The position numbers and the translations under genes are program-made. The notes beneath the pieces were generated by a model. The model did not search any database and was not told the origin of the DNA. It saw only the letters and a program-made list of their open reading frames with translations. A DNA stretch of 64,000 bases. Source: Candidatus Poribacteria bacterium. Its GTDB lineage: Bacteria; Poribacteria; WGA-4E; JAJDTR01. Positions 25,688-51,125 of the stretch are shown here, piece by piece; position 1 is the first letter of the stretch, and every line of letters begins with the position of its first letter. The DNA is taken from positions 4,192,001 to 4,256,000 of the forward strand of contig CBDCTK010000002.1 in the NCBI GenBank assembly GCA_965222225.1, in the 5' to 3' direction.

Positions 25688-25702
25688 TTGCTTTCAAGTA
25701 CC

Positions 25703-26611: not shown

Positions 26612-26646
26612 CAATCTCTATCGCACTCGTTATTCACTCGCTTGAT
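26612..26646 (+). repeat. 35-bp micro-element copy (5' end degenerate)
   Basis: CAATCTCTATCGCACTCGTTATTCACTCGCTTGAT. Confidence 0.8.
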
Positions 26647-26696
26647 CCCCGCTGGGGCTTTGGTGCACGGGGTTTTGGCGTTTCTATACACCTTCG

Positions 26697-26731
26697 GGAT
26701 CTCTATCGCACTCGCTATTCGCTCCCTTGAT
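26697..26731 (+). repeat. 35-bp micro-element copy
   Basis: GGATCTCTATCGCACTCGCTATTCGCTCCCTTGAT at a G|C junction. Confidence 0.85.
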
Positions 26732-26800
26732 CCCACGCTGGGGCTTTTAGAGGCTGGTGCGCAGTGCGCACCCTACAAATGTACTTTTCAAACAGGTTCT
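26732..26800 (+). repeat. Composite repeat (REP palindrome GGTGCGCAGTGCGCACC-CTAC plus IS5-like end), also at 33092-33195
   Basis: Near-identical to 33092-33195 apart from the 35-bp insertion there. Confidence 0.85.
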
Positions 26801-26842
26801 TAAAGTATCCTCAACCGCAAGAATCACGCTGTTCAAGCTCAT
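26800..26842 (-). pseudogene. 5' stub of the AAA partner gene (DUF4276-like), truncated by an IS5-like end
   Basis: MSLNSVILAVEDTL, ATGA-coupled to the ATPase stop, then runs into AGAACCTGTTTGAAAA. Confidence 0.6.
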
Positions 26843-27993
26843 GAGAGTGAACTCAGTTGATTGGGATGTTCGGGTTTGGTTCTCGAAAGCACGACTTCTG
26901 CCACCGTTAACCCTTCCTCAAGAAGCGGCTTGACATCGGCAATATCGGAGGCTATCTCGACTGCCGTTCCCTCTTTTGCAGGGGTGCGCAGGAGAACTTC
27001 CCTGCCATCGATCCCTTGATCAGTCAACAATGCGTCGCTATGAGTACTCACGAACACCTGTCGTCGCCGTCTTCGTTGCATCTTCGAAATCAGGGCGGCG
27101 AGTTGCGATACAATGCCGGCGTTCAAGGAAAGTTCGGGCTCCTCCAGTAGGAGGACGGACTCACTTTCAAGAAGCGTCCAAAGTAGCCCCAGAAGACGAA
27201 GTGTGCCGTCAGAAAACTGATCTTCGCGTTGCCAGCCCGCATTTGGACGCCAGTGGGAGTAAAGCGCCTGCAGGTGAGGACGGCCGGTAGATTCGTCACG
27301 GATGAATTCCAACTGCTCAAGCTGAGGCACGGCAAATTTGAGCGCTTGCTCAATAGTTTTTAAGCGTGACCGACGCGTTTTTGGCGTGATGCCCGCAACC
27401 CTCTCAAGAAATCCCTGCCCAAACGGGTCATCCTCAATGGCTCTTCCCTGAATCGAATTAGCAAACCGCAAGAGTTGAGGTACTAAATGAAGGTAAGTCA
27501 CCGTTTGGAGGAAACGCGCGATTTCGCGAAAATCGGCGATGACATTGATCTGCTCAAGAAAGGTCTGCGTCAGTCGATCACGATCGGCTTCATCTTCTTC
27601 GGTTGGCCTAGCTAGGAGTTGCGCGCCGTTTTTCCACACGCACTCATGCGTGAGATAGGTGTGGCGGTGACCTCGTGGTTCTTGTCGAAATCCTAACGAG
27701 TATCGCCAAGTTGCGGAAGTGTCCGCATCGTCTGCAAGATGAATCTCAATCGTAATTTCCGGATCTCTCCGCGCCGCTAGATTTCGGATTTTGGAGAGGC
27801 CGCCCCGGTCCTTGACGGCTTTTTGAAAACCTCCGCCTTCAGACTTTACGACATCTCGGAGAAAACGGAAAATGTCAAGAAGATTCGATTTCCCGGACGC
27901 ATTTGCGCCGACGATGAATTGACGTTCGCTGAGGTGAACATCAATCTCCCGAAAATTTCTCCAGTTCTTGGCGACGAGACGATTAATAATCAT
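26839..27993 (-). CDS. AAA_21/SMC-like ATPase
   Basis: GANASGKSN, FSDGTLR, LLLEEPE, STHS. Confidence 0.9.
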   Translation of the reverse strand: MIINRLVAKNWRNFREIDVHLSERQFIVGANASGKSNLLDIFRFLRDVVKSEGGGFQKAVKDRGGLSKIRNLAARRDPEITIEIHLADDADTSATWRYSLGFRQEPRGHRHTYLTHECVWKNGAQLLARPTEEDEADRDRLTQTFLEQINVIADFREIARFLQTVTYLHLVPQLLRFANSIQGRAIEDDPFGQGFLERVAGITPKTRRSRLKTIEQALKFAVPQLEQLEFIRDESTGRPHLQALYSHWRPNAGWQREDQFSDGTLRLLGLLWTLLESESVLLLEEPELSLNAGIVSQLAALISKMQRRRRRQVFVSTHSDALLTDQGIDGREVLLRTPAKEGTAVEIASDIADVKPLLEEGLTVAEVVLSRTKPEHPNQLSSLS

Positions 27994-28051
27994 GGCGTCT
28001 CCTTAAGTTTTTCTGATTGTCTTCGTGTGCTAAAATCATTTACCTCAGACG

Positions 28052-28251
28052 CTATATTCGTGTAGATTTCTTTGCTGCTTTGATCACTTTGATGAGGTAC
28101 TCAATGTCTCCAAGAGTGACATACGGCGGTTGCTGCATTGCCTTGATAAGGCGTTGAGCACTCGCATTTTTTCGGTCGGTAGTGGCGCCGATTTATCCTC
28201 AGGTTGTTCGATTAGCATTGTGGCTTGCTGCTGCAATTCCGCTTTTCGCAC
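28052..28251 (-). pseudogene. Chimeric or frameshifted antitoxin-like remnant
   Basis: GGAGG RBS plus VRKAELQQQATMLIEQ, similar to MRKTELKQRAIMLIEQ of 28834; then frame change. Confidence 0.45.
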
Positions 28252-28347
28252 GGTATCGTTCCTCCGTTTGCCAAATCCGAGGGAGAAGTGGTCTGTTTTA
28301 CGATGCTAAATGCGTAATTCCCATGGTATTGGCTTTTCCCGTTCAGA

Positions 28348-28623
28348 CTAGGAGCGATAGGCTCTGCCACGCTGATAGATGGTTCTAATAATGCACTCCC
28401 GGTTCATTGTGTCTACACTGTAGACAATCCGATAACTTCCGACGCGGTATCGGTATTGTCCACGATACTTGCCCTTCAATTTGACGATGTTTGGTCCGAA
28501 CAGTGGATTCTGGGCTAACAGAGCAATCGCCCGATTTACTCGGCGCTTCATATTGGTATCAAGCGCGTTATAGTGTTTCTCCGCCTCGGCGGTGAATAGC
28601 ACATTAAATATCGCTTTCAACAT
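28348..28623 (-). CDS. RelE/ParE family toxin
   Basis: KLKG....YRYRVGSYRIVY. Confidence 0.88.
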   Translation of the reverse strand: MLKAIFNVLFTAEAEKHYNALDTNMKRRVNRAIALLAQNPLFGPNIVKLKGKYRGQYRYRVGSYRIVYSVDTMNRECIIRTIYQRGRAYRS

Positions 28624-28834
28624 CAGCCCAACGCTTTAGCCTGCCCGCCTTGACATCCGTTTCCGCACGTTTCAGACTCTCGGCAACTTCCGGGTCACTC
28701 ATTAACTCGTGAGTTGCTTCCCATGCTTCTTTATCTTGAAGATATGCCAGATAGTCATGCGCTATTTTCAGTTTGTCAGCGGAAAGTTGCTCAATTAACA
28801 TTATCGCACGTTGCTTTAACTCGGTTTTGCGCAT
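28604..28834 (-). CDS. Cognate antitoxin
   Basis: EATHELMSDP..ESLKRAETDVKAGR; overlaps the toxin start. Confidence 0.8.
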   Translation of the reverse strand: MRKTELKQRAIMLIEQLSADKLKIAHDYLAYLQDKEAWEATHELMSDPEVAESLKRAETDVKAGRLKRWADVESDI

Positions 28835-28883
28835 ACATTTCTCCTTCCGTTTTCTGTGCACTTTGTCTGAATCGCGGATTCAG

Positions 28884-28918
28884 GGATCTCTATCGCACTC
28901 GTTATCCACTCGCTTGAT
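28884..28918 (+). repeat. 35-bp micro-element copy inside a TTGTCTGAATCGCGGATT.. repeat
   Basis: GGATCTCTATCGCACTCGTTATCCACTCGCTTGAT at a G|C junction. Confidence 0.85.
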
Positions 28919-29060
28919 CGGATTAAGGGATTACGCGGATTGAGTTTGCCTGAAGCGCCGATACGCCTTATCAGTTCGCTTAAACTGCGAAGCAGGGCTA
29001 ATTCTCCGTGTAAATTATAGCATACCTTGCGCGGTTAAGGCGGCCGCGGGGTTGTTTGAT

Positions 29061-29310
29061 TCACGCCGCTATTTTAGCCATGCTGTCTAGCGCCTCTGCT
29101 ACATCACGTACCGCAAGAAGGAACGCTTCTATGTCCTCGTCTTTCTCATAATCTTCAAGCGCAACGGAAAGGTATATCTTTGCGTCCTCCGGATCGCGTA
29201 GTTGTTCAATATGAAAGCCTTTGAAGCGTCTATAATTGCTCATTTTCTAACTCCCTAGCAGCTCTGATCGCCCGAACCAAACTGCAACCGAAGCTCAAAA
29301 CCCCGACTCG
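29061..29310 (-). pseudogene. Decayed addiction module (HI1420-like antidote lacking its HTH; HI1419-like killer remnant)
   Basis: YLSVALE..FLLAVRDVAEA then early stop; upstream fragment GFELRLQFGSG. Confidence 0.6.
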
Positions 29311-29413
29311 TGGGTTCGCATCATCACATATTGTCACATATTGTCACAAATTTTCGGGAGAATGTCGCGATTCGGAGATCGCTCCTACAGAACTAGGGAT
29401 CGGAGCGTGTTGC

Positions 29414-29449
29414 CTGCATCGCGGAATGGCGGGGATTCCATCCTTGATT
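29414..29449 (+). repeat. 36-bp direct repeat, copy 1 (copy 2 at 30799-30834)
   Basis: CTGCATCGCGGAATGGCGGGGATTCCATCCTTGATT; 3 mismatches to copy 2. Confidence 0.8.
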
Positions 29450-29544
29450 TGATTAAAGGATTACGCGGATTGAATTCGTTTGAGATGGATAGACCTAGAC
29501 AGCATACCGTCATTTTTCATCTGACTCGGTGAGATACTTCCTCT

Positions 29545-30768
29545 TTAGGTCTTATCGTTATCTTGCAACGATTTTGCGGCGAAAATGGCCAAACGTAATT
29601 CTTCTCCAAAGAGTTCATATAGAGGGGTTTTGCCGCTGAGCGCCTTGCTTTCATTGAGAATAATTCCGACCCCCTCACCCCTACGCTCCAGAAAGTGTCG
29701 CCTTGCTACATGTTTCTTCATATTATCGTCTAGCGTAGTTTCTGACAGTAGGCGAGCGAGCAGTTCGTTACGCGTCGCTTGGTTGTAGGGCAAATCGTCC
29801 ACCGTTAAGCTATTTGCCAATGCACCCGGCGAATAGAGTTCTAGCCGGTCCGTGAACATAAACAGGCGAATTTTCGATCCGGCTTTTGAATAATCTCTAT
29901 GTACAACTGCATTAACCAGTGCCTCAAAAACAGCTCTCATGCTGTATTGCGATCGTTCTATTCTGCCAATCTCCTTGCGAGCGGAGACTTGGTTATATCT
30001 TTCAACAAATTTGAATGCATCCACAATCTGGCGATCCAGCGGTCCCCTAAAATCCTTAGCATCAATCTGGTAGTTCGCATCCTTTTCCACGCCATTGTAA
30101 AATACGGCTTGAATGAAACTGTTATAGAGGTAATCGTCGGGGCTATCATGACACATCAACAGACCGGCTACCGAGGCGCGGTATTCATGACCATCTTTGA
30201 CCAGCAATCGTCTTTTAAGTAGTAAATCTTCTATCTTCTCACGATCAGCCGCATCCTCTGTGATAAATCGCTGATACAGCTTTTCCCTTAATGTTTCTTT
30301 GCGAGTGTTCGGGACAAACTGCTCATCAAAAGAGATTCTATGTGCTTGTGATCGGCTTTGTAACAATCGCGCCAACTGCTCGGTGGCCATCTCTCTTTTA
30401 CTGCTGCCTTGGCGGATGAAATAACCGTTAGATGATTTATGAACAAACGGGCTCCGAGGCACTTCGATTTTTAAGAGATTTTTATTATCAACTTGCAGTT
30501 TTTCTGTAACAATGTGAACCATAGGGTCAATGTTGTCTCCGCATATTTCAACTGCTGTTTTCTCTGTCCTATCAAGATTCTGGCGGTCAATACCGACAAT
30601 TTCACTATCATCGTCAACGCCGATTAGTATCACGCCACCGTTCGCGTTGGCAAACGCAGCGATTTCATCGCCGAGACTCTCTCTGTGATGCAACTCTCTT
30701 TTGAATTCAATCGTTGAGTCTTCTCCCAGATATATTTTTTCAATGAGGTCGGTCAGACTGTCGAACAT
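29545..30768 (-). CDS. AlbA_2 (Schlafen-like) plus HATPase_c_4 domain protein
   Basis: GEDSTIEFK, AFANANGG.ILIGVDD, EALVNAVVHRDY, ERRGEG. Confidence 0.88.
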   Translation of the reverse strand: MFDSLTDLIEKIYLGEDSTIEFKRELHHRESLGDEIAAFANANGGVILIGVDDDSEIVGIDRQNLDRTEKTAVEICGDNIDPMVHIVTEKLQVDNKNLLKIEVPRSPFVHKSSNGYFIRQGSSKREMATEQLARLLQSRSQAHRISFDEQFVPNTRKETLREKLYQRFITEDAADREKIEDLLLKRRLLVKDGHEYRASVAGLLMCHDSPDDYLYNSFIQAVFYNGVEKDANYQIDAKDFRGPLDRQIVDAFKFVERYNQVSARKEIGRIERSQYSMRAVFEALVNAVVHRDYSKAGSKIRLFMFTDRLELYSPGALANSLTVDDLPYNQATRNELLARLLSETTLDDNMKKHVARRHFLERRGEGVGIILNESKALSGKTPLYELFGEELRLAIFAAKSLQDNDKT

Positions 30769-30798
30769 CGCTCATTCTCCAGATGAATACGCTATTAT

Positions 30799-30834
30799 CT
30801 GCATCACGGATTGGCGGGGATTCCATCCTCGATT
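30799..30834 (+). repeat. 36-bp direct repeat, copy 2
   Basis: CTGCATCACGGATTGGCGGGGATTCCATCCTCGATT. Confidence 0.8.
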
Positions 30835-30913
30835 CGAAATCGGAATTACTGGGCGCTGCATTCTCAGAAATTGCATTGATTGGATTGGTTAGGACACTGG
30901 TGCTGCCTTCGCG

Positions 30914-31333
30914 TTACCTAGGCGCATCAAATATGAGAAAGACAAAGACGATGAAGGCAATTTCGATTAGGTAGAAGATAACGAACGTGACAGAGAAAAT
31001 TGCCGATACCCAGCTACATTTTGGTTTGTCTTTGTGTTTGAGAAGATCCATCTTAAAGTCGGTATCGGATTGGACTCTGACCTCGTCGTATACTTTTCGA
31101 AATAGCCTTTCTTGCCAAAGGAAATATCCGTTCAAGATCCAAAAGCCCATAACGGGGAGAATCAACGCCAAAGCAAAATAGGGATTCTCAACCTCGTGTT
31201 TAGGGATCAACACCATGGCTGCCACAATAATTATCATGCTCCAACTTTTTACCAAGAAACTGTTTCTTCCTAATCGGTTTATGACAGAATGGGTTATTTT
31301 CAAATTCTCGACTGCCTTTTCAGTGCAGTTCGT
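30914..31333 (-). pseudogene. Paralog of the 36929-37360 membrane protein, start codon ATG changed to ACG
   Basis: TNCTEKAVENLKITHSVINRLGRNS aligns with MNGTEKVVEHLKIIQAVIDRLGRNS. Confidence 0.7.
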
Positions 31334-31616
31334 GGTTTTTTACTCCAGTATCAAGTTTAGAAGCTGGCGATATATCGGGCTAGTTCATTCTCAGTTTATT
31401 TCCTAGTGTAATCCTTGGCTCGACTTTTTTGCATTCAGCAAGTTTAACAGACCGTGTAGATCAAACCATTCAGAATAACGGGTGAGATTTTAGCAATTTG
31501 GTCTGTTTTGCCGACCATTGAGAAAGTCTACCCTGTGGACGCGAATGCCTGTTTCACCCACCGCGGTGTATCGGGAAAGGTCGCCGGTGGTTTTTCGAAC
31601 AGCCTTTCACCTATCA

Positions 31617-31717
31617 GGACATACTATCGCCTACGTCGTCCATTCGGTTAATTGGTCGTTTGAAGTTATTTGATTACTACCCATTTAGTCGCTTGATCGC
31701 CATTCACTCCTTTAATC
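31617..31717 (+). repeat. Degenerate cluster of micro-element copies
   Basis: GGACATACTATCGC..GGTTAAT (31617-31652) plus 3' halves ..TTAGTCGCTTGAT and CATTCACTCCTTTAAT. Confidence 0.6.
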
Positions 31718-31796
31718 TCATGCTACAAATGTACAAAGTCGATCTTAGGATTTGCCCGACATGCTAAGTTTGGAAAAGCACCGGGCAGGGAGCGGA

Positions 31797-32414
31797 TTAG
31801 TTGTTGGACGAGGTTTCCAAGGCTTTTGTGTGCCCGTTCGTGCCCGGAATCAGCGCTGCCACTTCATCTCCGTCTTCGTTGCCAGGATGGGCAAGAGACG
31901 GGTGATTCCCACCCCCAAATTGTGCGAGGATTCCGCGGAGTTGCGTAATCGCGGTTGCAATATCGGGTGAGTCAATACGCTCGAGTGCGAACGTACTCAG
32001 TGACTGAGTCATGGTCAAGAGTTCGCGGAGGTCTTTAACGGTTGTGATTTCCACCTTCGCGTTATTTAATGCTTGCATAATGCAGTCGGTAAAACGGTCG
32101 GTCGCTTTGTCGATTTTACTATGCAAGTTCGCGAGGTATTCCTGTTTGCATTCTTGGTAGATTTCACCCCACTTGGCACGGTTGAATTTTTTGTTGTTGG
32201 GATTCATCGTGCGAATGCGTTCGCGTATTTGATCGCGGCTCAGGTGGAATTCCTTATCGGTCACGTGCTCCTGCACTTTCTCCAACAAATCTAGAACCTG
32301 GTTGGTTGTGCAGCATTCGGCAAACCTGCGTATGATATACTCGCAGACAAATGCCTCTTTCGAAAAATCGAGCGGCTTTTGTAATTTATTCACGTTTTCC
32401 TCCTCAAAAAGCAA
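31797..32414 (-). CDS. Hypothetical protein resembling DUF2280 (phage terminase small subunit-like)
   Basis: IIRRFAECCTTNQV..SRDQI..NP..KW.EIY pattern. Confidence 0.5.
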   Translation of the reverse strand: MLFEEENVNKLQKPLDFSKEAFVCEYIIRRFAECCTTNQVLDLLEKVQEHVTDKEFHLSRDQIRERIRTMNPNNKKFNRAKWGEIYQECKQEYLANLHSKIDKATDRFTDCIMQALNNAKVEITTVKDLRELLTMTQSLSTFALERIDSPDIATAITQLRGILAQFGGGNHPSLAHPGNEDGDEVAALIPGTNGHTKALETSSNN

Positions 32415-32996
32415 TTAGTGGCGAGCCACGGGATTGGATTATGGATGATACCCCAAATTCGGCGGTTTATCCAATAAAAGCCCCTTCAACAACGCAGAAA
32501 ACCGCCTTGTAATCTTGTAACACAGTTTTGCAATATTTTCCGTGCAGGCATGGTGTTGTGAGATGTTGCCATTGCGGGACGAGGAGATCCCCGTTGGGTG
32601 GAATCTGTATGTAATCTCTATGTTGTGCCCGATGAATCTTATAACTCAAAACTACGTGTGCTGCCGGGAATAAGCTGGACGAATGATACGACATGTATGT
32701 TAAGTTTGTCAGGGTAAATCTTCTGATTAAGAAGACGGCGGCTGAATGGGGTTCAATCGGCGAGGTTCATCACCGGGCGAGATGTGGCTGCGAGTTTTGG
32801 GAATTAGGGATTGGCGGGAATTCTGTCTCAAAGTCTGTATCACGGATATTCGCGGATAAAAGGATTACGCGGATAAAATTCTTCAGCGATTAGTAACCTA
32901 AGAGCTTGTTTGAATAATAGATAGTCAAGTCATGTCTGGTCATTTGAGGAAGGGCTTTTCATGTTCTTGTCGTCACACGCACACTATTCACCTGTC

Positions 32997-33091
32997 GGAT
33001 CTCTATGGGAGCTCTATCGCGGTCACTACGGGATCTTCTATCGCCTTCGTTAACCACTCTCAGTTGATCGCTCGTTATTCACTCGCTTGAT
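32997..33091 (+). repeat. Nested micro-element array
   Basis: Outer GGATCTCTAT...CTCGTTATTCACTCGCTTGAT interrupted by two further copies. Confidence 0.75.
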
Positions 33092-33119
33092 CCCGCGCTG
33101 GGGCTTTTAGAGGCTGGTG

Positions 33120-33154
33120 GGATCTCTATCGCATTCGCTAATCGCTCATTTGAT
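33120..33154 (+). repeat. 35-bp micro-element splitting a REP palindrome
   Basis: GGTG[35 bp]CGCAGTGCGCACC versus the empty site at 26756-26772. Confidence 0.9.
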
Positions 33155-33373
33155 CGCAGTGCGCACCCTACAAATGTACTTTTCAAACAGGTTCTAAGGC
33201 TTTCTATCAGTGATAAATATTTTTTTCATGTACTTTTACTTCAGTGATTACGTGATGACGTGGATTAGGGTGTGCGGGGGCGGGGGCGGACTTAGGGTGA
33301 AGATTATGAACTAAAGGCGAAAGAACGCGTTCGTAATGGTACTGGGAGAAAACCCTGATAGGCTTAGGTGGAT

Positions 33374-33856
33374 TTACTGAATATTCTCAAGCTCGGTTAA
33401 GTCTTCAACTTCTGCCATTAAAGACAGTGCTTTTGCGTAACCACGCAGTTTTTCTTGTAATTCTTCAAGTTCACACCTGAACTGTCTCACTAGTGCCTCA
33501 TCATTAAATGCATCTTCTAGTGATAGTTTGTGCCACTTCGCCGTAAATGGTCGTATGACTTGATTTAATACAGGTATGGCGATTTTTGCAAACTGAATAG
33601 ATCCAGAACCCTTGTCTTTCAAAATATCACGTGTTATTTGAAATAAGGAATAAACGCTAGTAAGTGCTGTTTTATCATCTCCAACATCAATCGGGAGTGG
33701 TTGAGTTGTGATTCTAGTCAGTAATTCAATGTACAATTCCCAAGCTGCTTCCTTGTCATGTTCTTTGGGCTTGAATTCAGCCTTTAACACATGAATATTA
33801 AGTTTCAATTGTGAAAGTTCTAGCCCAGAAATGGAAAGCCATTTTGAAAGTTTCAA
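33374..33856 (-). CDS. Hypothetical protein (160 aa)
   Basis: AGGAGG RBS; AAWELYIELLTR..IRPFTAKWH looks like a conserved helical family. Confidence 0.75.
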   Translation of the reverse strand: MKLSKWLSISGLELSQLKLNIHVLKAEFKPKEHDKEAAWELYIELLTRITTQPLPIDVGDDKTALTSVYSLFQITRDILKDKGSGSIQFAKIAIPVLNQVIRPFTAKWHKLSLEDAFNDEALVRQFRCELEELQEKLRGYAKALSLMAEVEDLTELENIQ

Positions 33857-34017
33857 ACCTACCTCCTAATGGGTGACTCCGCAATGTATACATTTTGAAT
33901 TGTACTTCTTAACTTACCCCCATCCTTTAGACAGTAAATGACGAGATTTAAGTAATGAAAACCGACTAAACCTGGTCAAATTGCTGGGCGTAAGTTCAAA
34001 AGAGGGCAAGCATTCTT

Positions 34018-34236
34018 TTAGATGTTGTACCCTAGTTTTGAGAATAGAAGTTGAAGAAGATCTGTATCGTTTTCAAACAACTCGATCGCCGTTTGTGATT
34101 CTAATTCGGTAAAGTGTTTCGTTCTTGACAGATGCTCTTTTATTCGGTTGATTTCGGTCCTACGTTCATTTAGAATCATTTCGACTTCTTCTTGAGTTAG
34201 TTCGCGCCGACTTATGGCTATTTCACGATAATTCAT
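34018..34236 (-). CDS. Small hypothetical protein (72 aa)
   Basis: AAGGAGG RBS and ATG start. Confidence 0.65.
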   Translation of the reverse strand: MNYREIAISRRELTQEEVEMILNERRTEINRIKEHLSRTKHFTELESQTAIELFENDTDLLQLLFSKLGYNI

Positions 34237-34415
34237 AAGTCAAACCTCCTTGAGGATATACTCTGAAGAAAACGAAGATAGAATCCATTAAAGGAATCTT
34301 GGAAGGCTTGGCAAAACGAATTCGACAACTGACCGAAAAAGTAAAAACCAGCATTCATAACAACGTATAGTCCTGACTACTTGGGGATAGCTAGCATTTG
34401 ACTTCTAGTTCCTGC

Positions 34416-34453
34416 AAAAGAAAAGGGAACGCCTGGTGAGAAGGCACTCCCTT
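34416..34453 (-). terminator. Intrinsic terminator
   Basis: AAGGGAGTGCC-loop-GGCGTTCCCTT followed by TTCTTTT on the minus strand. Confidence 0.6.
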
Positions 34454-34510
34454 AGCACCGGTGGCCGCAATTAACGTTCGCCGAAAAGCCTCGGTCTCTA
34501 TACTATACTG

Positions 34511-35152: not shown

Positions 35153-35167
35153 TGATACCTCCAAGAA

Positions 35168-35548: not shown

Positions 35549-35556
35549 GTTTTTAC

Positions 35557-35742: not shown

Positions 35743-35928
35743 GGTAATCGTCCTCTTCACGTCCTTGAAGTTTTCTGTTGGGAATTCTGAGAATCATGCG
35801 CTGGTCGGATTGCCGGAAACATGTCAAGCTAGAATGAAAACAGTATAAGAAAGGCTAACTCGGTGGTTCAGGTCAATAGGTTTTGCCAGGGGGAATCACG
35901 GAGAACCAGATTGCCCAAAAAAAACGTA

Positions 35929-43800: not shown

Positions 43801-44400
43801 ATCCGTCTGATCCGCCAAATCATCCTGCAAACGCTGAAAAACGGATTTGTAGGCGTCGAAGAAGCCTTTGGTAACGGCTTCAACGTCAAAGGCTTTGTCG
43901 TGACGGCTTTGAATTTCAAGCGGCGAGTCTAAGGATTCTGCATCCAGCATCGCAATCCGCTCTGAGGCGGTACGAAGTTTTTCACGCGGGCTAATCGTAA
44001 TGCGGCGGTAGAGTCGGCGTTTCTCCGGATGTTCTTCGTCGAATTTGGCATTGACGAAGTGCCAGTCGGTTTGCTCCCGGTTGCTGAACATGAAAAGGGC
44101 GTAGGGGTAGTCTTTCAGGAGACGAGAGATGATGGGTCGTTCGGCGGTCAGGGGCAGGCGGTCCGAGTCGAGACGGGTATAGATGAGGTGAAAATCGGAG
44201 TCATTTCCGCCTGTCGCAAATAGGAGCGGGTCTTCAGCCGTGCGAGAAGTGTTTGACTGGTTCCTGTCGCCAAGGGAAATCGGGGCGTTTTGGTAATCGT
44301 AGTTCAATTCCGTACAGAAGAGTTCTCTGAGGGGTTTGATTCCGCGGAAGTTTTGGAGGATGTCGTGGATTCTTTGTTCGTCGGGGAGGTCATGTGGCAT
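40806..44400 (-). pseudogene. Type IIG/Eco57I-like N6-adenine methyltransferase (restriction-modification), frameshifted near 43260
   Basis: PYLNGGLF, IGKVYE, GIFYTP | DPACGSGSF, IGNPPY; the two ORFs join if 2 nt are restored. Confidence 0.88.
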
Positions 44401-44451
44401 AGATGTTCTCACAATGCATTTTTTTGTAAGTTGGGAGTCGGGAATCGGAGG

Positions 44452-44486
44452 GGATCTCTATCGCACTCCTTATTCAGTCGCTTGAT
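44452..44486 (+). repeat. 35-bp micro-element copy
   Basis: GGATCTCTATCGCACTCCTTATTCAGTCGCTTGAT at a G|C junction in a ..CCTAC repeat. Confidence 0.85.
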
Positions 44487-44729
44487 CCGTCCTACGGTAG
44501 AAGCCCCGCTGAAAATCCCCATACTATAATCGTACAGTTTTCGATTCAAGTCAAGCAAACAATCAAGTTTGGACTGCCTCCGACCTTGACAACGGAGACG
44601 AAATCGTGCGAGCCACCTTGGGAAGGTTTAGTATCAAACGCATTTTGTCAACGGCTGTGTCCTTTGATTCGTTAGGACTTGTATTCGGATACACAAAGAG
44701 AACGTCAAAGGTAAACTAGGAGGAACGAA

Positions 44730-45143
44730 ATGAGAATTGTAGCAATCTTAATGTTGGTGTTATTGACAGCTTGCGCCGAGATATACGAGGAGTTTAGGGA
44801 ACATGAAGAAAATGACAAACATGAAGAACACACTGAAATCTTGACCCTAGGTCCCTACACGATGCAGTGCTACGGGCCATTTGAGCAAGACTGCTTTATG
44901 GAGTACAACGAGGAAGCGGGACGCTGGCACTTTTTCTACGACGGTATTGAAGGCTTCCACTTTGAACCGGGGTACATCTATACGCTTGAGGTTAGGTTGG
45001 AGGACCGCGGCACCGAGATTCAGGATGTGGGACGCTATTCGTATCACCTGATAAAGATAGTGGATAAGGTAAAAGCGCCAGATGACTTTGATTACGCGAA
45101 AAACGAGAAACCCCAACTTTCAGATCTTGAATCTGGTGCATGA
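44730..45143 (+). CDS. DUF4377-like lipoprotein, copy 1
   Basis: LTAC lipobox; C.G....C..W.FFY..I.GF.FEPGY.Y.L.V. Confidence 0.8.
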   Translation: MRIVAILMLVLLTACAEIYEEFREHEENDKHEEHTEILTLGPYTMQCYGPFEQDCFMEYNEEAGRWHFFYDGIEGFHFEPGYIYTLEVRLEDRGTEIQDVGRYSYHLIKIVDKVKAPDDFDYAKNEKPQLSDLESGA

Positions 45144-45224
45144 GAATAGGTGTGATAAGACTTACACAAATGCAACCCATCCCGTGAATATGATTCGTCA
45201 CAGGTAGATTTAGGAGAGGCGAAA

Positions 45225-45566
45225 ATGAGATTCGTAATATTCGTTGTATTGGCGCTATTGGTGGCTTGCGGCGAAGAGCACACCGAGGTCCTAACGCTTG
45301 GTCCCTATACCAAGCGGTGCGTTGGGGCTTTTGAGCAAGACTGTTTTATGGAATACAACGAGGAAGCGCAACGCTGGCACTTTTTCTACGATGTTATTCA
45401 AGGCTTCGACTTTGAGCCGGGGTACATCTATACGCTTGAGGTTGGGTTGGAGGATCGTGGCACCGAGATACAGGATGTCGGACGGTATTCGTATCACCTT
45501 ACAAAGATAGTGGATAAAGTGAAATCTCCTGATGATTTTGACTACGCAAAGAACGAGAAGCCTTAA
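45225..45566 (+). CDS. DUF4377-like lipoprotein, copy 2
   Basis: LVAC lipobox; near-identical domain to copy 1. Confidence 0.8.
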   Translation: MRFVIFVVLALLVACGEEHTEVLTLGPYTKRCVGAFEQDCFMEYNEEAQRWHFFYDVIQGFDFEPGYIYTLEVGLEDRGTEIQDVGRYSYHLTKIVDKVKSPDDFDYAKNEKP

Positions 45567-45685
45567 TTCTCAGGACTTGAATGTTGTGTACGCGAACAAA
45601 TGTGATAGGACGTACACAATTGAGCCCTCAAATCCGTCTAACTCGGAGATTTCACCGTAGGGATAAGGAGGATTTCAATCGCGGG

Positions 45686-45720
45686 GGATTTACTATCGCC
45701 TTAGTATCCGCACAGTTAAT
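45686..45720 (+). repeat. Divergent 35-bp micro-element copy
   Basis: GGATTTACTATCGCCTTAGTATCCGCACAGTTAAT. Confidence 0.6.
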
Positions 45721-45855
45721 TCTATCCGGTCGCTCAACATTCACTCGCCTCAGCCTGCTGTGGGGCTTTCTGCAGGAAATGGTGGGCGGTGCCCACCCTA
45801 CAAATATACTACAGCTCCTAAAATGTCGCGGTTTAGAAAAAGTTTGCAAAAAGAA

Positions 45856-45884
45856 TTGACAATCCCTTGACCATAAGATATAAT
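45856..45884 (+). promoter_or_regulatory. Perfect sigma70 consensus promoter
   Basis: TTGACA-17 bp-TATAAT. Confidence 0.75.
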
Positions 45885-45908
45885 AGCGCGCAACACGCGT
45901 GGCTGGCT

Positions 45909-45990
45909 TGAGACTGAGTCTCAGAGTCAATAACTAGTGGTATATAATAGCATCGGGATTTAATTTGAGAATGCATGATACTGAGTCTCA
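45909..45990. promoter_or_regulatory. Two 7-1-7 Fur-like boxes
   Basis: TGAGACTGAGTCTCA (45909-45923) and TGATACTGAGTCTCA (45976-45990), next to iron genes. Confidence 0.6.
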
Positions 45991-46215
45991 ATATCATATT
46001 TTGCAGCCGCGTGACGGTCAAAACCGAATTCATCCGCAATAATATTTTTAACCTGTAGATTCTAGGCATCCAATCCTTGCACGTCACTTGATTGGTTCAC
46101 TTGCGGCAAAGCGTTATATAATACGTTTTGGGTTGAAACATATCTCTAGACCTCTTCGTTAATCGCATTGCCATCTGTGTATTCGGTGCAAAGTAAATTA
46201 GGCGTTCTCTTCGTC

Positions 46216-46689
46216 TTATTCGGCGTCAATCTGTTGCGCGAGGTAGTTTTCAATGCCCATCTGGCTAATTTGGTCCAGTTGTGCCTCAATCCAGTCAACG
46301 TGTTCCTCCTCCTCTCGGAGAATTTCTTCAAACAGTTCCTCCGTGCCAAAGTCCTTCAGGGTATGCGCAAGTTGAATCAATTCGTTCAACCGTTCAATAG
46401 CTTCCTTCTCAAGGGCGCAATCGTTATCCATCATCTCCTTAACGGTTTTGCCAATCTTGATTTCAAAGTATCGTGCCATGTTCGGCAAACCATCCAGGTA
46501 GAGAACTCGCGCTATCAATTTTTCAGCGTGCCTCATTTCTCCGATGGAATGTTCTCGAATCGCGGCGTGCAGGCGCTCATAACCCCAATTTTCGCACATT
46601 TCCGAATGAGCGAAATATTGGTTGATTGCGGTTAGCTCAGAGGTCAGTATTTCGTTGAGTGCTTCAATGATGTCGGGATGGCCGTACAA
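46216..46689 (-). CDS. bfr: Bacterioferritin
   Basis: ELTAINQYF, EMRHAEKLI.R.L.L.G.PN, EEEH ferroxidase ligands. Confidence 0.95.
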   Translation of the reverse strand: MYGHPDIIEALNEILTSELTAINQYFAHSEMCENWGYERLHAAIREHSIGEMRHAEKLIARVLYLDGLPNMARYFEIKIGKTVKEMMDNDCALEKEAIERLNELIQLAHTLKDFGTEELFEEILREEEEHVDWIEAQLDQISQMGIENYLAQQIDAE

Positions 46690-46859
46690 TTTGGTCTCCT
46701 CTTCGGTTTGGTATAAATTAGATTTAATGTAAAGCTTGTAAGACTACGAACACAGTTAAAGCATAGTTTAGAAACGTGGGCGATGTCAAGCAAAAGTGAG
46801 GGAGGTAAGAATTCTGTACACTCGACCTAGACCGGCCAAGGGAAAGTAATTTCGGGATT

Positions 46860-47348
46860 TTGATTCCTCTTGTGTCCGAATCGAGTGGAATTCCCAGACA
46901 TAGTTATATGCCTTTACAAATCCAAACAGCATCGGTGAATCGAGAAGAATCTCGATTCGTAAAAGCGACAGAGACCAACAACGTGACCCCGGGAAGTAGT
47001 GTCGCCGTAAAGTTGGAAGGTAATTTCATTGGAATACACAATGTTGATGGCGAGTACTACGCTATCGATAATATCTGCCCTCACGTGGGCGGCGTTTTGC
47101 ACGCGGGCAAACAGGAAGGCGGTGTTATTGTTTGTCCAATCCATGAGTGGAAATTTGATGTGAAAACAGGGAAATGCATCTGGCCCGGCGAATGTGAATT
47201 GGCTACCTATCCTTTGAAGGTAAGCGGAGGTGATATCTTGGTTGACGTGGATTCACCAAGTACCCCGCAGAAACGTAGTCGTCTTCGCGCGTGTTCAACT
47301 AATACCAATGACCAATCGAAATCAAGCGAATGGAGGATACAGAGTTGA
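46860..47348 (+). CDS. Rieske (2Fe-2S) ferredoxin; start uncertain
   Basis: CPH...CPIH. Confidence 0.85.
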   Translation: MIPLVSESSGIPRHSYMPLQIQTASVNREESRFVKATETNNVTPGSSVAVKLEGNFIGIHNVDGEYYAIDNICPHVGGVLHAGKQEGGVIVCPIHEWKFDVKTGKCIWPGECELATYPLKVSGGDILVDVDSPSTPQKRSRLRACSTNTNDQSKSSEWRIQS

Positions 47349-48346
47349 AATTCCTCGTGCTGGCAATCAGTATTCTAACGGTTGTGGCGACGTGCGGTGC
47401 CGTAGACGCAAAAGAACTGGTTCTCTATTCCGGTAGAAGCAAGAGTCTGGTTGAACCGATAATTAAGCAATTTGAGAATGAGACGCAAATTAAGGTGAAG
47501 GTGCGTTACGGCGGCACAGCGGAGCTTGCAGTTGCATTGTTGGAGGAGGGGGAGAATAGTCCCGCCGATCTCTTCTGGGCTCAAGATGCGGGGGCGCTCG
47601 GTGCAATCAGTAAGCGTGGTCTATTTCAACAACTGCCTGACACAATCCCTTCGAAAGTGCCTGAAAAATTCCGCGATTCGGGAGGAATGTGGGTGGCTAC
47701 CAGCGGACGTGCTCGTGTCATCGCATACTCCTCCGACCAGATTAAAGCTGAGGACGTGCCCGACAGCATCTTTGAGTTGACGGATTCAAAATGGCAGGGA
47801 CGGGTTGGATGGGCACCGCAGAACGCTTCGTTCCAGGCATTTGTGACGGCGATGCGCGTTGGAATCGGGGAGGAAAAGACCGAGGAATGGCTGCGTGGAA
47901 TGAAGGCGAACAAAACAAAAGGTTATGCCAAGAATACTCCGATCATCAAAGCGCTCGCAGCGGGCGAGATCGATCTGGGTCTGCCGAATCATTACTACCT
48001 GTTGCGATTCAAGAAAACCGATTCCGAGTTCCCGGTCGAACAAGCTTTCTTTAAACCCGACGACCCGGGAAATCTCGTCAATATCTCAGGCATCGGACAT
48101 CTAAAAACCAGCCAAAACTCCGAAGAAGCTCTCGCCCTGATCCAATTCTTGCTCTCTTCCCAAGCACAACAGTTTTTCGTCAGTGAAGTCTTTGAGTATC
48201 CTATAACCAATAACGCAGTTCCAAATCCAAACCCGAAGCTAGTGCCGCTTGCAGAACTACTGGAGCGGACACCGAAAATCAATCTTGGAGACTTGGACGA
48301 TCTTGACGGCACCCTCAAACTTCTAAGGAAGGTGGGAATCTTGTGA
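47330..48346 (+). CDS. Fe(III) ABC transporter substrate-binding protein (FbpA/FutA-like)
   Basis: YSGR, EGENSPAD, NHYY. Confidence 0.9.
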   Translation: MEDTELKFLVLAISILTVVATCGAVDAKELVLYSGRSKSLVEPIIKQFENETQIKVKVRYGGTAELAVALLEEGENSPADLFWAQDAGALGAISKRGLFQQLPDTIPSKVPEKFRDSGGMWVATSGRARVIAYSSDQIKAEDVPDSIFELTDSKWQGRVGWAPQNASFQAFVTAMRVGIGEEKTEEWLRGMKANKTKGYAKNTPIIKALAAGEIDLGLPNHYYLLRFKKTDSEFPVEQAFFKPDDPGNLVNISGIGHLKTSQNSEEALALIQFLLSSQAQQFFVSEVFEYPITNNAVPNPNPKLVPLAELLERTPKINLGDLDDLDGTLKLLRKVGIL

Positions 48347-49926
48347 CATTTCACAAGATTGGTCGGGTTCTACAGTGGTTCTTCTTCCTCCTCCCGACGT
48401 TTATTGTTAGCTTGAGTGTGCTCGTGTCTTTAGCGTACCTTGTTTTACGGGCCGCTGAGGCAGACAGTGCGGAGTTGATCGAGGTTGTTTTTCGATCAAG
48501 AACTCTTTTCCTCTTTGGCAACACAGTGTTGCTCGTCGTCGGTGTTGTCGTCGCTGACATCGCTTTGGCATTGCCTTTCGCTTGGATCACCAGCCACACG
48601 AATGTTAAGGCTAAGCGTTTCTTTACGCTGATGGGTGTGTTGCCGCTGGCAATTCCCAGTTACGTGATGGCATACGCTATTCTGGGTTTGGGCGGCAAAG
48701 ACGGGGCATTTGCTCAACTGTTCGGTATAAGCCTCCCTCGGTTGAGTGGATATTGGGGGGCATTGACCGCACTTAGTTTTTATACATTCCCTTACTTTTT
48801 TCTAAATATACGTTCAGCATTGATCGGAGTCGATCCGGCGCTTGAGGAATCTGCCCGCAGTCTCGGCTATCGGCGGCGGGAAGTGTTGTATTACGTCCTT
48901 ATCCCCCAGCTACGCCCGGCGCTCTACGCTAGCGGACTGGTCGTCGGACTACACGTATTGGGTAATTTCGGGGTTGTCTCGCTAATGCGGTATGAAACAT
49001 TTAGTTTCGCAATCTACTTGCAATTAGCCTCTTTCGATCGCATTTACGCGGCATGGCTCGCGCTGATGCTCCTCGTTTTTGCCGGATGCCTGGTCTATGT
49101 CGAAGCACGACTATTGCGAGGCAAGAGTTTTCATCGGGCGGGAATTGGTAGCATTCATCAAAGAAACCTCATCCCACTCAAAGGATGGGGACAACTCTCT
49201 TACCTCTATCTCGGCGTTTTGATATTCAGCTGTATCGCGGTTCCAACTATTACGATAGTATTATGGATGATCAGGGGACTTGATTCGGTGTCTATGGAAA
49301 ACCTCGTTAAAGCGGTGATTGGCTCCCTTGGGGCTGCTGTACCAGCCGCTTTTCTGAGTACTAGCCTTATGCTACCGCTAGTGTACTTGGGAGTTCGTCG
49401 TCCTTCCGCTTTGTCTCGACTGTTGGAGCGCCTCGCCTACATCGGCTATGCCATACCGCCGTTGGCATTCGGGCTGTCTTTGATTTTCTTCGTACAGCGG
49501 GTAATTCCCGGTCTCTATCAAACGTTATGGCTTCTAGTTTATGGTTACACGTTACATTTCATGGCTGAAGCAATCGGTCCCGCACGCAGCACCATTTATC
49601 AAGCTTCGACCAACATTGAGGAAGCGGCGCGTTCCCTCGGTTTTTCGAGGCTAAAGGCCTTTTACAAAGTGACCATTCCCATACTTATCCGAGGGCTGAC
49701 CATAAGCACTGCTTTTGTATTTCTCTCCGCTATGAAAGAACTTCCAATTGCCTTCTTACTCCGCCCTATAGGATATGAGACGTTAGCGTTGAATGTCTGG
49801 AGCAACACCTCCGAAGCCTTTTTTGCCGAAGCGGCTCCATACGCTCTACTTATGATAATCTTCGCCGGGCTATTTGTTGGACTCCTGCTTGTTCGGGAAA
49901 GGAGCGTGCATGAACTGCCTGCTTAA
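48343..49926 (+). CDS. Fe(III) ABC transporter permease (FbpB-like)
   Basis: Duplicated EE.ARSLG motifs; multiple TM helices. Confidence 0.9.
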   Translation: MTFHKIGRVLQWFFFLLPTFIVSLSVLVSLAYLVLRAAEADSAELIEVVFRSRTLFLFGNTVLLVVGVVVADIALALPFAWITSHTNVKAKRFFTLMGVLPLAIPSYVMAYAILGLGGKDGAFAQLFGISLPRLSGYWGALTALSFYTFPYFFLNIRSALIGVDPALEESARSLGYRRREVLYYVLIPQLRPALYASGLVVGLHVLGNFGVVSLMRYETFSFAIYLQLASFDRIYAAWLALMLLVFAGCLVYVEARLLRGKSFHRAGIGSIHQRNLIPLKGWGQLSYLYLGVLIFSCIAVPTITIVLWMIRGLDSVSMENLVKAVIGSLGAAVPAAFLSTSLMLPLVYLGVRRPSALSRLLERLAYIGYAIPPLAFGLSLIFFVQRVIPGLYQTLWLLVYGYTLHFMAEAIGPARSTIYQASTNIEEAARSLGFSRLKAFYKVTIPILIRGLTISTAFVFLSAMKELPIAFLLRPIGYETLALNVWSNTSEAFFAEAAPYALLMIIFAGLFVGLLLVRERSVHELPA

Positions 49927-50953
49927 CCTTCACAACGTGACCAAGCATTTCTCACCACTTCCAGCGCCGGTGGTGGATGATGTTAGCTTCGAGATGAACG
50001 CCGGCGAGATTTTTGCCTTATTGGGACCTAGTGGGTGTGGCAAAACGACGACCTTGCGCCTAATTGCGGGATTCGAGCGATCCGATTCAGGAGAAATTCA
50101 CGTAGAAGACAGATGCATCGAAAGCCTGTCAATCCATGCACCACCCGAGTCGCGCGAGATCGGCTTCGTTTTTCAGGACTATGCGCTTTTTCCGCATCTA
50201 AATGTTTTGGACAATGTCGCGTTCGGTTTGAAGAAATTACCCCCGAAAGCTCGATTCGATCGGGCGTTGGAAGTGCTGGAGATGGTAGAACTTGCCGAAT
50301 TCCGAGGCCGAACGCCTCACGACCTCTCCGGCGGCGAACAGCAACGCGTCGCATTGGCTCGTTCCATCGCTCCAAGCCCCAAACTCATTCTTCTGGACGA
50401 ACCGTTTTCCAATCTTGACGCCGGGTTACGTCAAGCCACCCGCAAAGAGGTGCGACAACTGCTTAAAGATGCCGGGATGAGCGCCATGTTGGTCACACAT
50501 GATCGGGAGGAAGCTCTCAGTTTTGCCGATCGCGTTGCTGTCATGGAAAACGGTAGAATTGAACAGACGGGGGCACCCGAAGCCATGTATAATCGACCCA
50601 AAACCCCGTTTGTGGCAGAATTCCTCGGTAAGACAAATCTCGTTTCGGGCGCCGCTCGTGGAGACTGTGCCGAAACCGATTTAGGTAAATTCAAACTTGA
50701 TTGTCACGCTCAAGGTAGGGTGTTGCTCTCAATAAGACCGGAACATTTGACAATGATTCACGCTACCGCAGGCGAAAAGAATGCCAAATTGGGCAAAATC
50801 GTCGAGCGTGAATTCAAGGGGCACGACCTCACCTATCGGGTGCAGGTCGAAGGCAGAGACTACTTCGTGCAGACCGATTACCGCTGCCCATACCAAATCG
50901 GAGATTGGGTACAACTCAAGGCAGTTGAACCTGGGGTGGTGCTCAATGAATAG
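49910..50953 (+). CDS. Fe(III) ABC transporter ATP-binding protein (FbpC-like)
   Basis: GPSGCGKT, LSGGEQQR, LLDEP, C-terminal TOBE-like domain. Confidence 0.92.
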   Translation: MNCLLNLHNVTKHFSPLPAPVVDDVSFEMNAGEIFALLGPSGCGKTTTLRLIAGFERSDSGEIHVEDRCIESLSIHAPPESREIGFVFQDYALFPHLNVLDNVAFGLKKLPPKARFDRALEVLEMVELAEFRGRTPHDLSGGEQQRVALARSIAPSPKLILLDEPFSNLDAGLRQATRKEVRQLLKDAGMSAMLVTHDREEALSFADRVAVMENGRIEQTGAPEAMYNRPKTPFVAEFLGKTNLVSGAARGDCAETDLGKFKLDCHAQGRVLLSIRPEHLTMIHATAGEKNAKLGKIVEREFKGHDLTYRVQVEGRDYFVQTDYRCPYQIGDWVQLKAVEPGVVLNE

Positions 50954-50969
50954 AGTTCAGACCTCAAGT

Positions 50970-51125
50970 GATTAAGCGAGCAAATGGATTGACCGAGATC
51001 GATTTAGCTGATAATGAGGGATCAACCGAACGATGAACTGAGTGGATAACGAAGTCGATAGTAAGTCCTATAGTGAGGGATCAAGGGAACGAACAGTGAC
51101 CGCGATAGAGCTCCCATAGAGATCC
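50970..51125 (-). repeat. Nested micro-element array (reverse strand)
   Basis: Intact inner copy at 51080-51114 inside an outer GGATCTCTAT copy; host repeat TTGTCTGAATCGCGGATT at 51129-51146. Confidence 0.75.

Follow-up and report, generated by a model that had tools for sequence, protein, structure and literature searches.

The DNA analyzed here is a stretch of 64,000 nt from the chromosome of a Candidatus Poribacteria bacterium (contig CBDCTK010000002.1 of assembly GCA_965222225.1, positions 4,192,001 to 4,256,000). We refer to this whole stretch as the window, to which all plain positions refer, and to the genome that holds it as G000. Scattered along the window are copies of a very short repeat, a 36-nt unit made of a purine and a 35-mer ("35-mer" denotes the unit without its leading purine), some of them lying inside hairpins that resemble repetitive extragenic palindromic (REP) sequences. 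We think it fairly probable that this family consists of non-autonomous 36-nt insertion elements that are recognized as a folded single strand and copied in trans.

The window was scanned with GGATCTCTATCGC at no more than two mismatches, and 100 shuffles were scanned for comparison. Twelve matches were found where 1.23 were expected, a number reached by 0 of the 100 shuffles, and the spaced pattern CTATCG-N15-24-TTGAT was matched seven times against 0.27 expected. A profile built from genome copies also returned 12 matches with nhmmer, on the forward strand at 22307, 26614, 26697, 28884, 31624 (weak, E 9.8), 33008, 33037, 33069, 33120 and 44452, and on the reverse strand at 51033 and 51080. 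The content of the window amounts to seven intact or near-intact copies plus decayed and nested copies, which lie at 32997-33091, 45670-45745 and 51033-51125 (reverse). This agrees with the copy family described in the initial annotation, whose entry at 45686 belongs to a decayed nested cluster that begins at 45670. In an Rfam search of the window, no family reached its gathering score. The features are as follows:

22306..22341, forward strand: decayed copy ending in TTAAT, enclosed as the loop by the arms of a hairpin, GGTGGG...CCCACC-CTAC (nhmmer E 0.45); outside the range of the initial annotation
26612..26646, forward strand: copy with an altered 5' end (CAATCTC...), located 5' of CCCCGCTGGGGC in a composite repeat (nhmmer E 2.3e-7)
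26696..26731, forward strand: intact 36-nt unit (G + 35-mer), then C (nhmmer E 2e-8; 15 paralogous empty-site matches)
26756..26776, forward strand: empty host, a REP-like hairpin GGTGCGC-AGT-GCGCACC with CTAC tag; empty target G|C at 26759|26760
28883..28918, forward strand: intact 36-nt unit within a GAATCGCGGATT...CGGATTAAGGGATT repeat (nhmmer; 4 paralogous empty-site matches)
31617..31730, forward strand: clustered decayed copies and fragments (nhmmer E 9.8, weak)
32997..33091, forward strand: three-level nest (nhmmer; parsed by eye); behind its CTAT, the outer copy (32997-33006 + 33069-33091) is broken by two others, one truncated at the 3' end (33008-33028) and one a variant of 38 nt (33031-33068)
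33119..33154, forward strand: intact unit in a G|C site, in the 5' arm of a REP-like hairpin (nhmmer; 50 empty-site matches)
33155..33171, forward strand: rest of the interrupted host hairpin (CGCAGTGCGCACC) with CTAC tag (from the sequence)
44451..44486, forward strand: intact 36-nt unit between GGGAATCGGAG and CCGTCCTAC (mismatch scan, nhmmer)
45670..45745, forward strand: decayed nested cluster (mismatch scan, sequence)
51033..51125, reverse strand: nest in which the outer copy is interrupted twice, behind CTAT by a complete inner copy (51080-51114) and in its loop by a decayed one (51033-51061) (mismatch scan, spaced pattern, nhmmer)

The window contains an empty and a filled form of the same site. 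The empty context gaggctggtg|cgcagtgcgcaccctacaa (26750-26779) recurs at 33110-33171 with 35 nt (33120-33154) between the G and the C, and the joined flanks of the 33120 copy align to the empty context 26726-26799 at 98.6% over 74 nt. The pair that had been proposed from these positions (26759|26760 against 33120-33154) is therefore exact and shows no duplication. Likewise, the four clean copies (26697, 28884, 33120 and 44452), said to sit at G|C junctions in different hosts, all have G at -1 and C at +1, each in a different host sequence. Beside the repeat clusters there is an apparent defense island (22337-30768), whose members are an SNF2-helicase/PLD-nuclease protein (22337-25687), a TIR-domain protein (25703-26311), an AAA_21 (AbiEii-type) ATPase (26839-27993) and a Schlafen AlbA_2 + HATPase_c_4 protein (29545-30768).

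G000 comprises a 5.64-Mb chromosome, in which the window lies, plus a 63-kb contig, with a GC content of 0.50. The HIP1-like GATCGC first suggested a cyanobacterial origin; this was rejected, as the nearest relatives of a PPK2 gene of the window (69-92% aa identity) come from Candidatus Poribacteria MAGs, apart from one assigned only to an uncultured bacterium. The regular expression suggested for a genome-wide search matched 419 times, and 405 of these matches were exactly 35 nt long. With nhmmer, 1515 matches were obtained at E<=10 and 985 at E<0.01, 555 of the latter covering the whole model; the 982 matches at E<0.01 that lie on the chromosome were used for gene-context and orientation counts. 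Most of the seemingly "3'-anchored" matches were full copies with a 5' arm that is variant or 1 nt longer. The copies cluster, 516 of the 982 having a neighbor within 300 nt. At G004:C60:33834-33938, three full 35-nt units with different variable cores ("hearts") stand head to tail with zero spacer.

The family is abundant in two genera, g1 (to which G000 belongs) and g4, which are placed in different families. A strict 35-nt pattern was found 223 times in G000, 131-453 times in each of nine other g1 species, twice in g2 and 3-8 times in each of four g4 species, with 0 matches in 26 other genomes of the order, and a reversed-pattern control gave 0 in every genome searched. Among 176 Poribacteria genomes, a 29-nt core was abundant only in g1 (332-832 copies per genome in 10 of 10, a 2.5-fold difference within the genus) and g4 (122-141 in 4 of 4), where the 5' arm reads GAARA in place of GGAKYT. 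Elsewhere the core gave 14 and 5 matches in two metagenome-assembled genomes (MAGs), G066 and G146, 1-2 in four genomes and 0 in the rest. In G066 (contigs C72, C83, C91 and C116) and G146 (C61 and C362) the copies lie on a few small contigs only, which may have been misbinned from a g1-type genome. Viral contigs held 0 matches to the element. Searches of JGI metagenomes gave no true copies; six stretches there carry two distinct sequences and are read as chance matches because the complementary pairs of the hairpin described below are missing. Contigs from four public runs of four studies cover the element-bearing stretches. A library or assembly artefact, which had been raised as an alternative, is excluded, the family occurring in 14 separate MAG species and its stretches being covered in these four runs.

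The mode of insertion was read from empty sites, that is, paralogous sequences that match the joined flanks of a copy, which were found for 191 of the 405 exact copies. Filled and empty forms could be scored in 147 pairs from 112 distinct contexts, all paralogous and within the same genome. A filled site consists of the left flank, a purine (G in 290 and A in 80 of 405), the 35-mer and a C (373 of 405), and the corresponding empty site holds one to three bases that are missing from the filled one. In the modal class, which accounts for 77 of the 147 pairs, one base is extra and two are lost, with CG>G (40) and TG>G (28) as the main forms; further classes include ATG or TTG>G (12), T>G (10), G>A (8) and the precise insertion seen in the window (7). 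Since junctions of the types G>A and CG>A exist, the purine must be part of the insert rather than of the target, so that the unit measures 36 nt and its commonest net gain is 34 nt. A target duplication fits 0 of the 147 scored pairs, of which 140 have replaced or lost bases and 7 are precise. Of the initial claim of a 35-nt insertion without target duplication, the second half stands; as to the first, the usual event genome-wide is 36 nt replacing about two. The two ends behave differently. At the TTGAT end, which is the foot of the hairpin, the junction is precise and lies 5' of a C, and the opposite end has the extra purine and the one to three replaced nucleotides. The target logo built from the empty sites, as had been recommended, shows Y (84%) at -2, G (73%) at -1, C (96%) at +1, S (82%) at +2 and C (69%) at +3, which gives the rule YG|CSC.

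Targets that already lack the lost base were not found in the genome, either as REPs with a G-only loop (0 versus 65 intact) or, in the nested-site equivalent, as CTATGC (0 versus 623 intact CTATCGC), which means that the base change is made at insertion. Excision footprints were also missing (0 CTATGC or CTATC-type outer copies versus the same 623 intact, with 159 filled nested sites), so the spread looks replicative. An origin from GATC-ended restriction fragments (31 + 4 = 35) was considered and rejected, given the variation at positions 4-5 and the fact that insertion is not into GATC.

On the written strand the unit reads R-GGAKYTCT followed by the hairpin ATCGC-NN-TC-NN-TATYC-NN-TC-NN-TTGAT, and on the reverse strand the hairpin reads 5'-AUC/AA/NN/GA/NN/GRAUA/NN/GA/NN/GC/GAU, an irregular structure that takes up 27 of the 36 nt. 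Positions 1-3, 7-13, 16-17, 20-24, 27-28 and 31-35 are near-invariant in the 405 copies, and positions 14, 15, 18, 19, 25, 26, 29 and 30 hold about 0.4-0.9 bits each. The variable positions form four nested covarying pairs, with a mutual information of 1.19 for 18:26, 1.04 for 15:29, 0.63 for 14:30 and 0.50 for 19:25, and each pair is Watson-Crick in 269-376 of the 405 copies, among which 118 distinct hearts occur. The core had been described as "TCR-periodic"; the mutual information and the compensated pairs reveal a covarying hairpin instead. Non-Watson-Crick pairs on the written strand are 187 A.C versus 24 G.T, and because A.C on this strand is G.T on the other, the wobbles are assigned to the reverse strand. 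T16/C28 and C17/T27 are about 95% invariant and, read on the reverse strand, become tandem G.A/A.G. Standard pairs make up 94.4% on the reverse strand among distinct sequences, compared with 60% after partner shuffling (0 of 1000 reach 94.4%) and 20-57% for partners shifted 1-3 positions along. RNAfold predicts (((..((..((.....))..))..))) for three of four reverse strands and none of four forward strands; it adds a basal AUC/GAU helix, and the foot of the hairpin coincides with the TTGAT end of the unit. Some pair types are absent, namely T:A at the first and third pairs and A:T at the second, and the fourth pair is Y:R only. A 5'-Y-GA-R-3' context favors sheared G.A pairs, and the missing pair types would fit such a context. 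Taken together, the covariation shows that selection keeps the irregular hairpin, which is read properly only on the reverse strand.

Fully intergenic positions account for 896 of the 982 chromosomal matches, on a chromosome of which crude calls of open reading frames (ORFs) cover 79%. Orientation shows no bias relative to flanking genes in the same 982 matches. It does follow GC skew (Spearman 0.61, p 7e-4 in 200-kb bins; -0.06 for gene-strand bias): where the skew over +/-50 kb is positive, 295 copies are '+' and 157 '-', and where it is negative, 148 are '+' and 382 '-', although the copies in these counts are non-independent and a Fisher significance is overstated. The written strand thus tends to be the G-rich strand and the folding strand the C-rich one. 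Neighbors no more than 100 nt apart are co-oriented in 183 of 221 cases. The GC skew of the G000 chromosome (C2) itself flips its sign many times over 5.6 Mb and does not define two replichores, which suggests numerous inversions or assembly joins at repeats.

These regularities might be expected of a motif that serves the host, for example as a site for a nucleoid, replication or RNA-processing protein (a role also proposed for REPs), selected locus by locus and mobile only incidentally. Unpaired positions are 95-100% conserved and paired ones vary only with compensation, the motif is strongly excluded from coding DNA, and its orientation follows replication. We nevertheless consider this explanation improbable, in that copies often destroy one another by nesting (159 sites), their orientation is unrelated to neighboring genes, the motif was not found in most of the Poribacteria genera searched, close relatives included, and its copy number varies 2.5-fold within genus g1.

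The hosts of the unit are of several kinds. Complementary arms of at least 5 bp enclose 61 of the 405 copies, versus 17 in a permuted control, and at 27 of these 61 sites CTAC comes next, equivalent to a GTAG-tagged REP-like hairpin on the other strand. These numbers, together with the 191 copies with empty sites, support the original proposal of duplication-free insertion into REP-like hairpins and other repeats. The unit also inserts into itself: 159 CTAT-R-GGA sites occur genome-wide, up to three levels deep, 79 of the 405 exact copies come after CTAT-R, inside another copy whose CTAT|CG|C they interrupt, and further nesting hot spots are positions 15-19 and the loop. At L083:1976-2032 and similar sites, a copy directly abuts the reverse complement of the 5' arm (TTGAT-CGATAGAGATCC), a 47-nt palindromic form that probably arose by insertion into an oppositely oriented copy at G|CGATAG.

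Another host is the hairpin ACCTGTCGCCCCGCTGGGGC, which flanks a Y1 gene. Inverted ACCTGTCGCCCCGCTGGGGC hairpins surround an IS200-like Y1 gene in G000, G001 (two copies), G002, G005, G009 and one g4 genome. In G000 this gene lies at G000:C2:3080372-3080716, and its product begins MADTYTQIYLH. Inverted ACCTGTCGCCCC(G/T)CTGGGGC hairpins border it in six species, five of g1 and one of g4, and gene and hairpins together look like a REPtron. Members of the ACCTGTCGCCCC(G/T)CTGGGGC hairpin family are also found within the ~130-nt composite repeat of the window (26560-26800 and 32990-33175).

Genes are hit occasionally. A methylase-like protein of G000 and G005 contains an in-frame REP with the unit in its loop, which adds about 17-22 residues, and this insert is not present in the orthologues of G001, G002 and G008. 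A solitary unit with no host repeat lies in gene G000:C2:3736518-3738572, where it adds 11 residues in frame; the gain of 33 nt is consistent with 36 nt replacing 3, and the unit is missing from 11 of 11 compared homologues (9 from other species and 2 paralogues). Judged by this sequence comparison, the solitary copy is the cleanest evidence that the bare unit can insert alone. The gene belongs to a very large paralogous family of ~650-700-aa proteins, some with stop codons, which gives 62-153 six-frame matches per g1 genome.

Such host associations raise the possibility that the 35-mer is an immobile passenger, one or a few ancient insertions of which were spread by amplification of the host repeats (REPs and the ~130-nt composite) and by gene conversion. 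Heart variants do follow host context (24 copies are identical and 43 share the heart AG.AT.AT.CT), the REP and the 35-mer stand together in frame in the methylase-like gene of G000 and G005 and are missing in three orthologues, and host REPs have the same strand bias. Yet one junction rule holds across 112 distinct contexts, 118 hearts occur among 405 copies, the 159 nested sites include inner hearts that are diverse among those listed of the 79 nested exact 35-mers, and the solitary copy has no host repeat to ride in. Moreover, base-less target variants are missing (0 versus 65 and 0 versus 623), so the junction must have been made at each insertion. We regard passive spread as an unlikely account of the family.

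Since 36 nt cannot encode anything, the unit must be acted upon in trans. The HUH or recombinase/reverse transcriptase mechanism in trans of the initial annotation holds in this respect; as to the class of enzyme, no Y1 subtype or reverse transcriptase (RT) co-occurs with the element. A transposase or RT gene flanked by the same ends, which the annotation had suggested might exist, did not emerge: the Y1 loci are not consistently flanked by the unit, and a crude orphan-end scan for a larger gene-bearing element with the same ends, which relied on an imperfect definition of orphans, gave no convincing candidate. Five Y1_Tnp matches were found in G000 (an IS200-like protein, one of 257 aa, a RAYT-like one of 171 aa, one with a stop codon and one fragment). 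The 257-aa Y1 protein (G000:C2:2563965-2564705 and G005:C1:3780663-3781403) is 99% identical between the two species, as against ~85% DNA identity in their housekeeping-type genes, and the comparison suggests that it was recently transferred. The sole RT match in G000 is an RT-like ORF of 679 aa (L086, G000:C2:4499563-4501569).

An RNA-mediated route was weighed against this background, in which a transcribed unit would be copied by an RT into a nicked target, in the target-primed manner of short interspersed elements (SINEs). It would explain the asymmetry of the junctions, which are precise at TTGAT|C and show an extra purine and a loss of 1-3 nt at the other end (R2 elements make a 2-bp target deletion), and G.U-type wobbles are well tolerated in the hairpin. 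The RT-like ORF of G000 is a candidate source, but its match to RVT_1 is weak (27.5 bits), the gene was not found in 4 of 10 g1 species, including G008, and was found in only 1 of 4 g4 species, and its counterparts in four other g1 species contain in-frame stop codons. Truly 5'-truncated copies are not overrepresented: of 264 3' fragments, 139 come directly after the TTGAT-like end of another copy, and many of the remaining ones come after ...TTGA, so that they too resemble outer remainders of nests. Copies lie in both orientations to neighboring genes, so the required strand would not be reliably transcribed, and the wobbles place the fold on the strand opposite to the required RNA. We give this route little credence.

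The explanation that we favor is that of a non-autonomous element copied in trans from single-stranded DNA. The unit is inserted as a discrete piece, its hairpin-foot end joined precisely 5' of the C in YG|CSC and its other end adding one purine and replacing 1-3 (mostly 2) target nucleotides without duplication. Landing sites are REP-like hairpins, the Y1-associated hairpin, the unit's own copies and, occasionally, genes. The element is presumably recognized as a folded single strand, and single-stranded DNA at the replication fork is a likelier substrate than RNA because there is no co-occurring RT, no signature of 5' truncation and no dependence on gene orientation. Copying would fall to a structure-specific nuclease or transposase whose gene lies elsewhere. 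Among named candidates a Y1 HUH enzyme ranks first, though tentatively, and it is roughly as probable that the enzyme is from a class so far without a link to transposition. The family has the pattern of a selfish element, being mostly intergenic and patchily distributed (two genera in two families), with a 5' arm that differs in g4.

Several observations weigh against this explanation. Predicted folding energies of the hairpin are weak and no better than those of shuffles (z -0.77 to +1.46), and because they match shuffles, support for the hairpin comes from covariation and not from stability. Many copies ride in amplified host repeats, as the 24 identical copies and the 43 with one heart illustrate. 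Empty host REPs show the same strand bias as the copies (126 of 169), and the bias may be inherited from the hosts. In IS608 the active strand is the lagging-strand template; the folding strand of the unit tends to the C-rich strand, which is opposite to that rule. Y1 genes occur widely in Poribacteria, also where the element is missing, and no Y1 subtype is common to all element-rich genomes. In G008, which holds 702 core copies, one Y1 match was found, of a subtype not among the five Y1 matches of G000 as inspected; close relatives of the L084-type Y1 (at least 73% identity) occur in five genomes only, and the L082 type occurs in two genomes plus a fragment. The unit consistently flanks no Y1 gene in the 13 Y1 loci of 10 genomes inspected, and its adjacency to such genes is sporadic. 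A simple IS608-like model is thus disfavored, both by the way in which the strand bias points and because no Y1 subtype co-occurs with the element. The RT-like gene is present in 6 of 10 g1 and 1 of 4 g4 genomes, and TnpB and IS110 were not found in G000. Finally, no orthologous bare-unit polymorphism was found between strains, the public-run contigs breaking at repeats; joints in those contigs (4 runs) represent paralogous forms at high depth, and the stretch is present in 20 of 24 public runs from 10 studies. In an orthologous comparison around the PPK2 gene of the window, intergenic DNA was not alignable between species.

Among described repeats, the closest known kind appears to be the small dispersed repeats (SDR1-8) of Nostocaceae cyanobacteria, which were reportedly described by Elhai et al. 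in 2008 and are said to be 21-27-nt dispersed units inserted in otherwise conserved Nostocaceae sequences. SDRs were reported to be missing outside Nostocaceae (PMC5861425), and SDR5 inserts between nucleotides 3 and 4 of HIP1, GCG|ATCGC (PMC4390886). SDR5 is 21 nt long, and SDRs were without known function as of a 2026 paper, according to the part of it consulted (PMC13756078). As far as such citing passages show, SDRs, and SDR5 in particular, are like the 36-mer in being far below the size of miniature inverted-repeat transposable elements (MITEs), highly repeated and mobile, and in inserting precisely into another short repeat; the SDR5 target GCG|ATCGC may be compared with GSG|C, the target of the 36-mer on its reverse strand. 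The 36-mer differs in its length (36 versus 21 nt), its phylum and, to the extent that these passages allow a comparison, its unrelated sequence. It also has an explicit junction rule and a covarying hairpin with tandem G.A pairs, SDRs being known here from citing passages only. In behavior the 36-mer matches the description of SDRs, as its copies too interrupt conserved sequence, both paralogous and orthologous.

REPs and REPINs resemble the 36-mer as ~35-nt extragenic imperfect hairpins present in hundreds of copies, non-coding, dependent on a trans-acting enzyme and oriented with replication. The REP/REPIN tag GT[AG]G or CGTC, however, is at neither foot of the 36-mer on either strand in the 405 copies, of which the reverse strand starts ATCAA and the forward strand GGAKYT; the CTAC/GTAG tags belong to the host hairpins. 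REPINs are inverted doublets, whereas 183 of 221 close neighbor pairs of the 36-mer have the same orientation. In a REPtron, tnpA_REP is flanked by its own REPs, and no Y1 gene is consistently flanked by the 36-mer. Rather, the 36-mer inserts into REPs, and the true REP-like families of the genome are its hosts. MITEs make target duplications. Those of the Nezha, Correia/NEMIS and ERIC kinds are, like the 36-mer, non-autonomous, intergenic and of high copy number, but the ends of the 36-mer (GGAKYT and TTGAT) do not form inverted repeats, and none of the 147 pairs shows a duplication. MITEs measure 70-300 bp and have 15-30-bp terminal inverted repeats in the part of the source consulted (PMC3733652), and on that basis the unit is, as first claimed, far below their size at 36 nt.

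The traits of the IS200/IS605 family used for comparison are in part those given in PMC6006769. IS608 and ISDra2 share with the 36-mer the lack of duplication, a target at one end only, a hairpin near the ends and a replication-strand bias; they have two different subterminal hairpins and a length of hundreds of nucleotides, in contrast to a single hairpin, 36 nt, 1-3 replaced target nucleotides and no footprints. No guide-like complementarity was seen, by eye only, between the bases 5' of the hairpin foot and the target. A non-LTR (long terminal repeat) or SINE-like element needs a co-occurring RT and 5' truncations; the fragments of the 36-mer are mostly nest remainders, and the RT was found in 6 of 10 g1 and 1 of 4 g4 genomes. 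The 36-mer thus lacks defining features of REPs and REPINs (tag, REPtron, doublets), of IS200/IS605 derivatives (two hairpins) and of MITEs (terminal inverted repeats, target duplication), and no report of such repeats in Poribacteria came up in the literature searches.

No known transposition mechanism explains the insertion of so small a unit. It is conceivable, though in our view doubtful, that an undescribed transposition chemistry moves the 36-mer and perhaps also the cyanobacterial SDRs. A single irregular hairpin with sheared G.A pairs would then be all that is recognized, and a single-stranded DNA copy made at the fork would be joined 5' of a C, in place of 1-3 target bases, by an enzyme that belongs to none of the known transposase families. 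If this is true, the 36-mer would rank as the smallest defined mobile DNA whose junction signature can be read.

Mobile DNA below ~70 bp is almost undocumented, SDRs being the one described case, and the 36-mer family adds a second, independent and much better-defined system of tiny mobile DNA. Its unit is fixed at 36 nt, its "36 replaces 2" junction is reproducible, its hairpin is defined by covariation, a target logo and a strand bias are at hand, and ten species hold ~330-830 core copies each. The family thereby offers concrete substrates for the biochemistry of the mobilizing enzyme. In an uncultivated phylum of sponge symbionts, the family shows repeats that parasitize repeats and at times add 11 codons to a gene.

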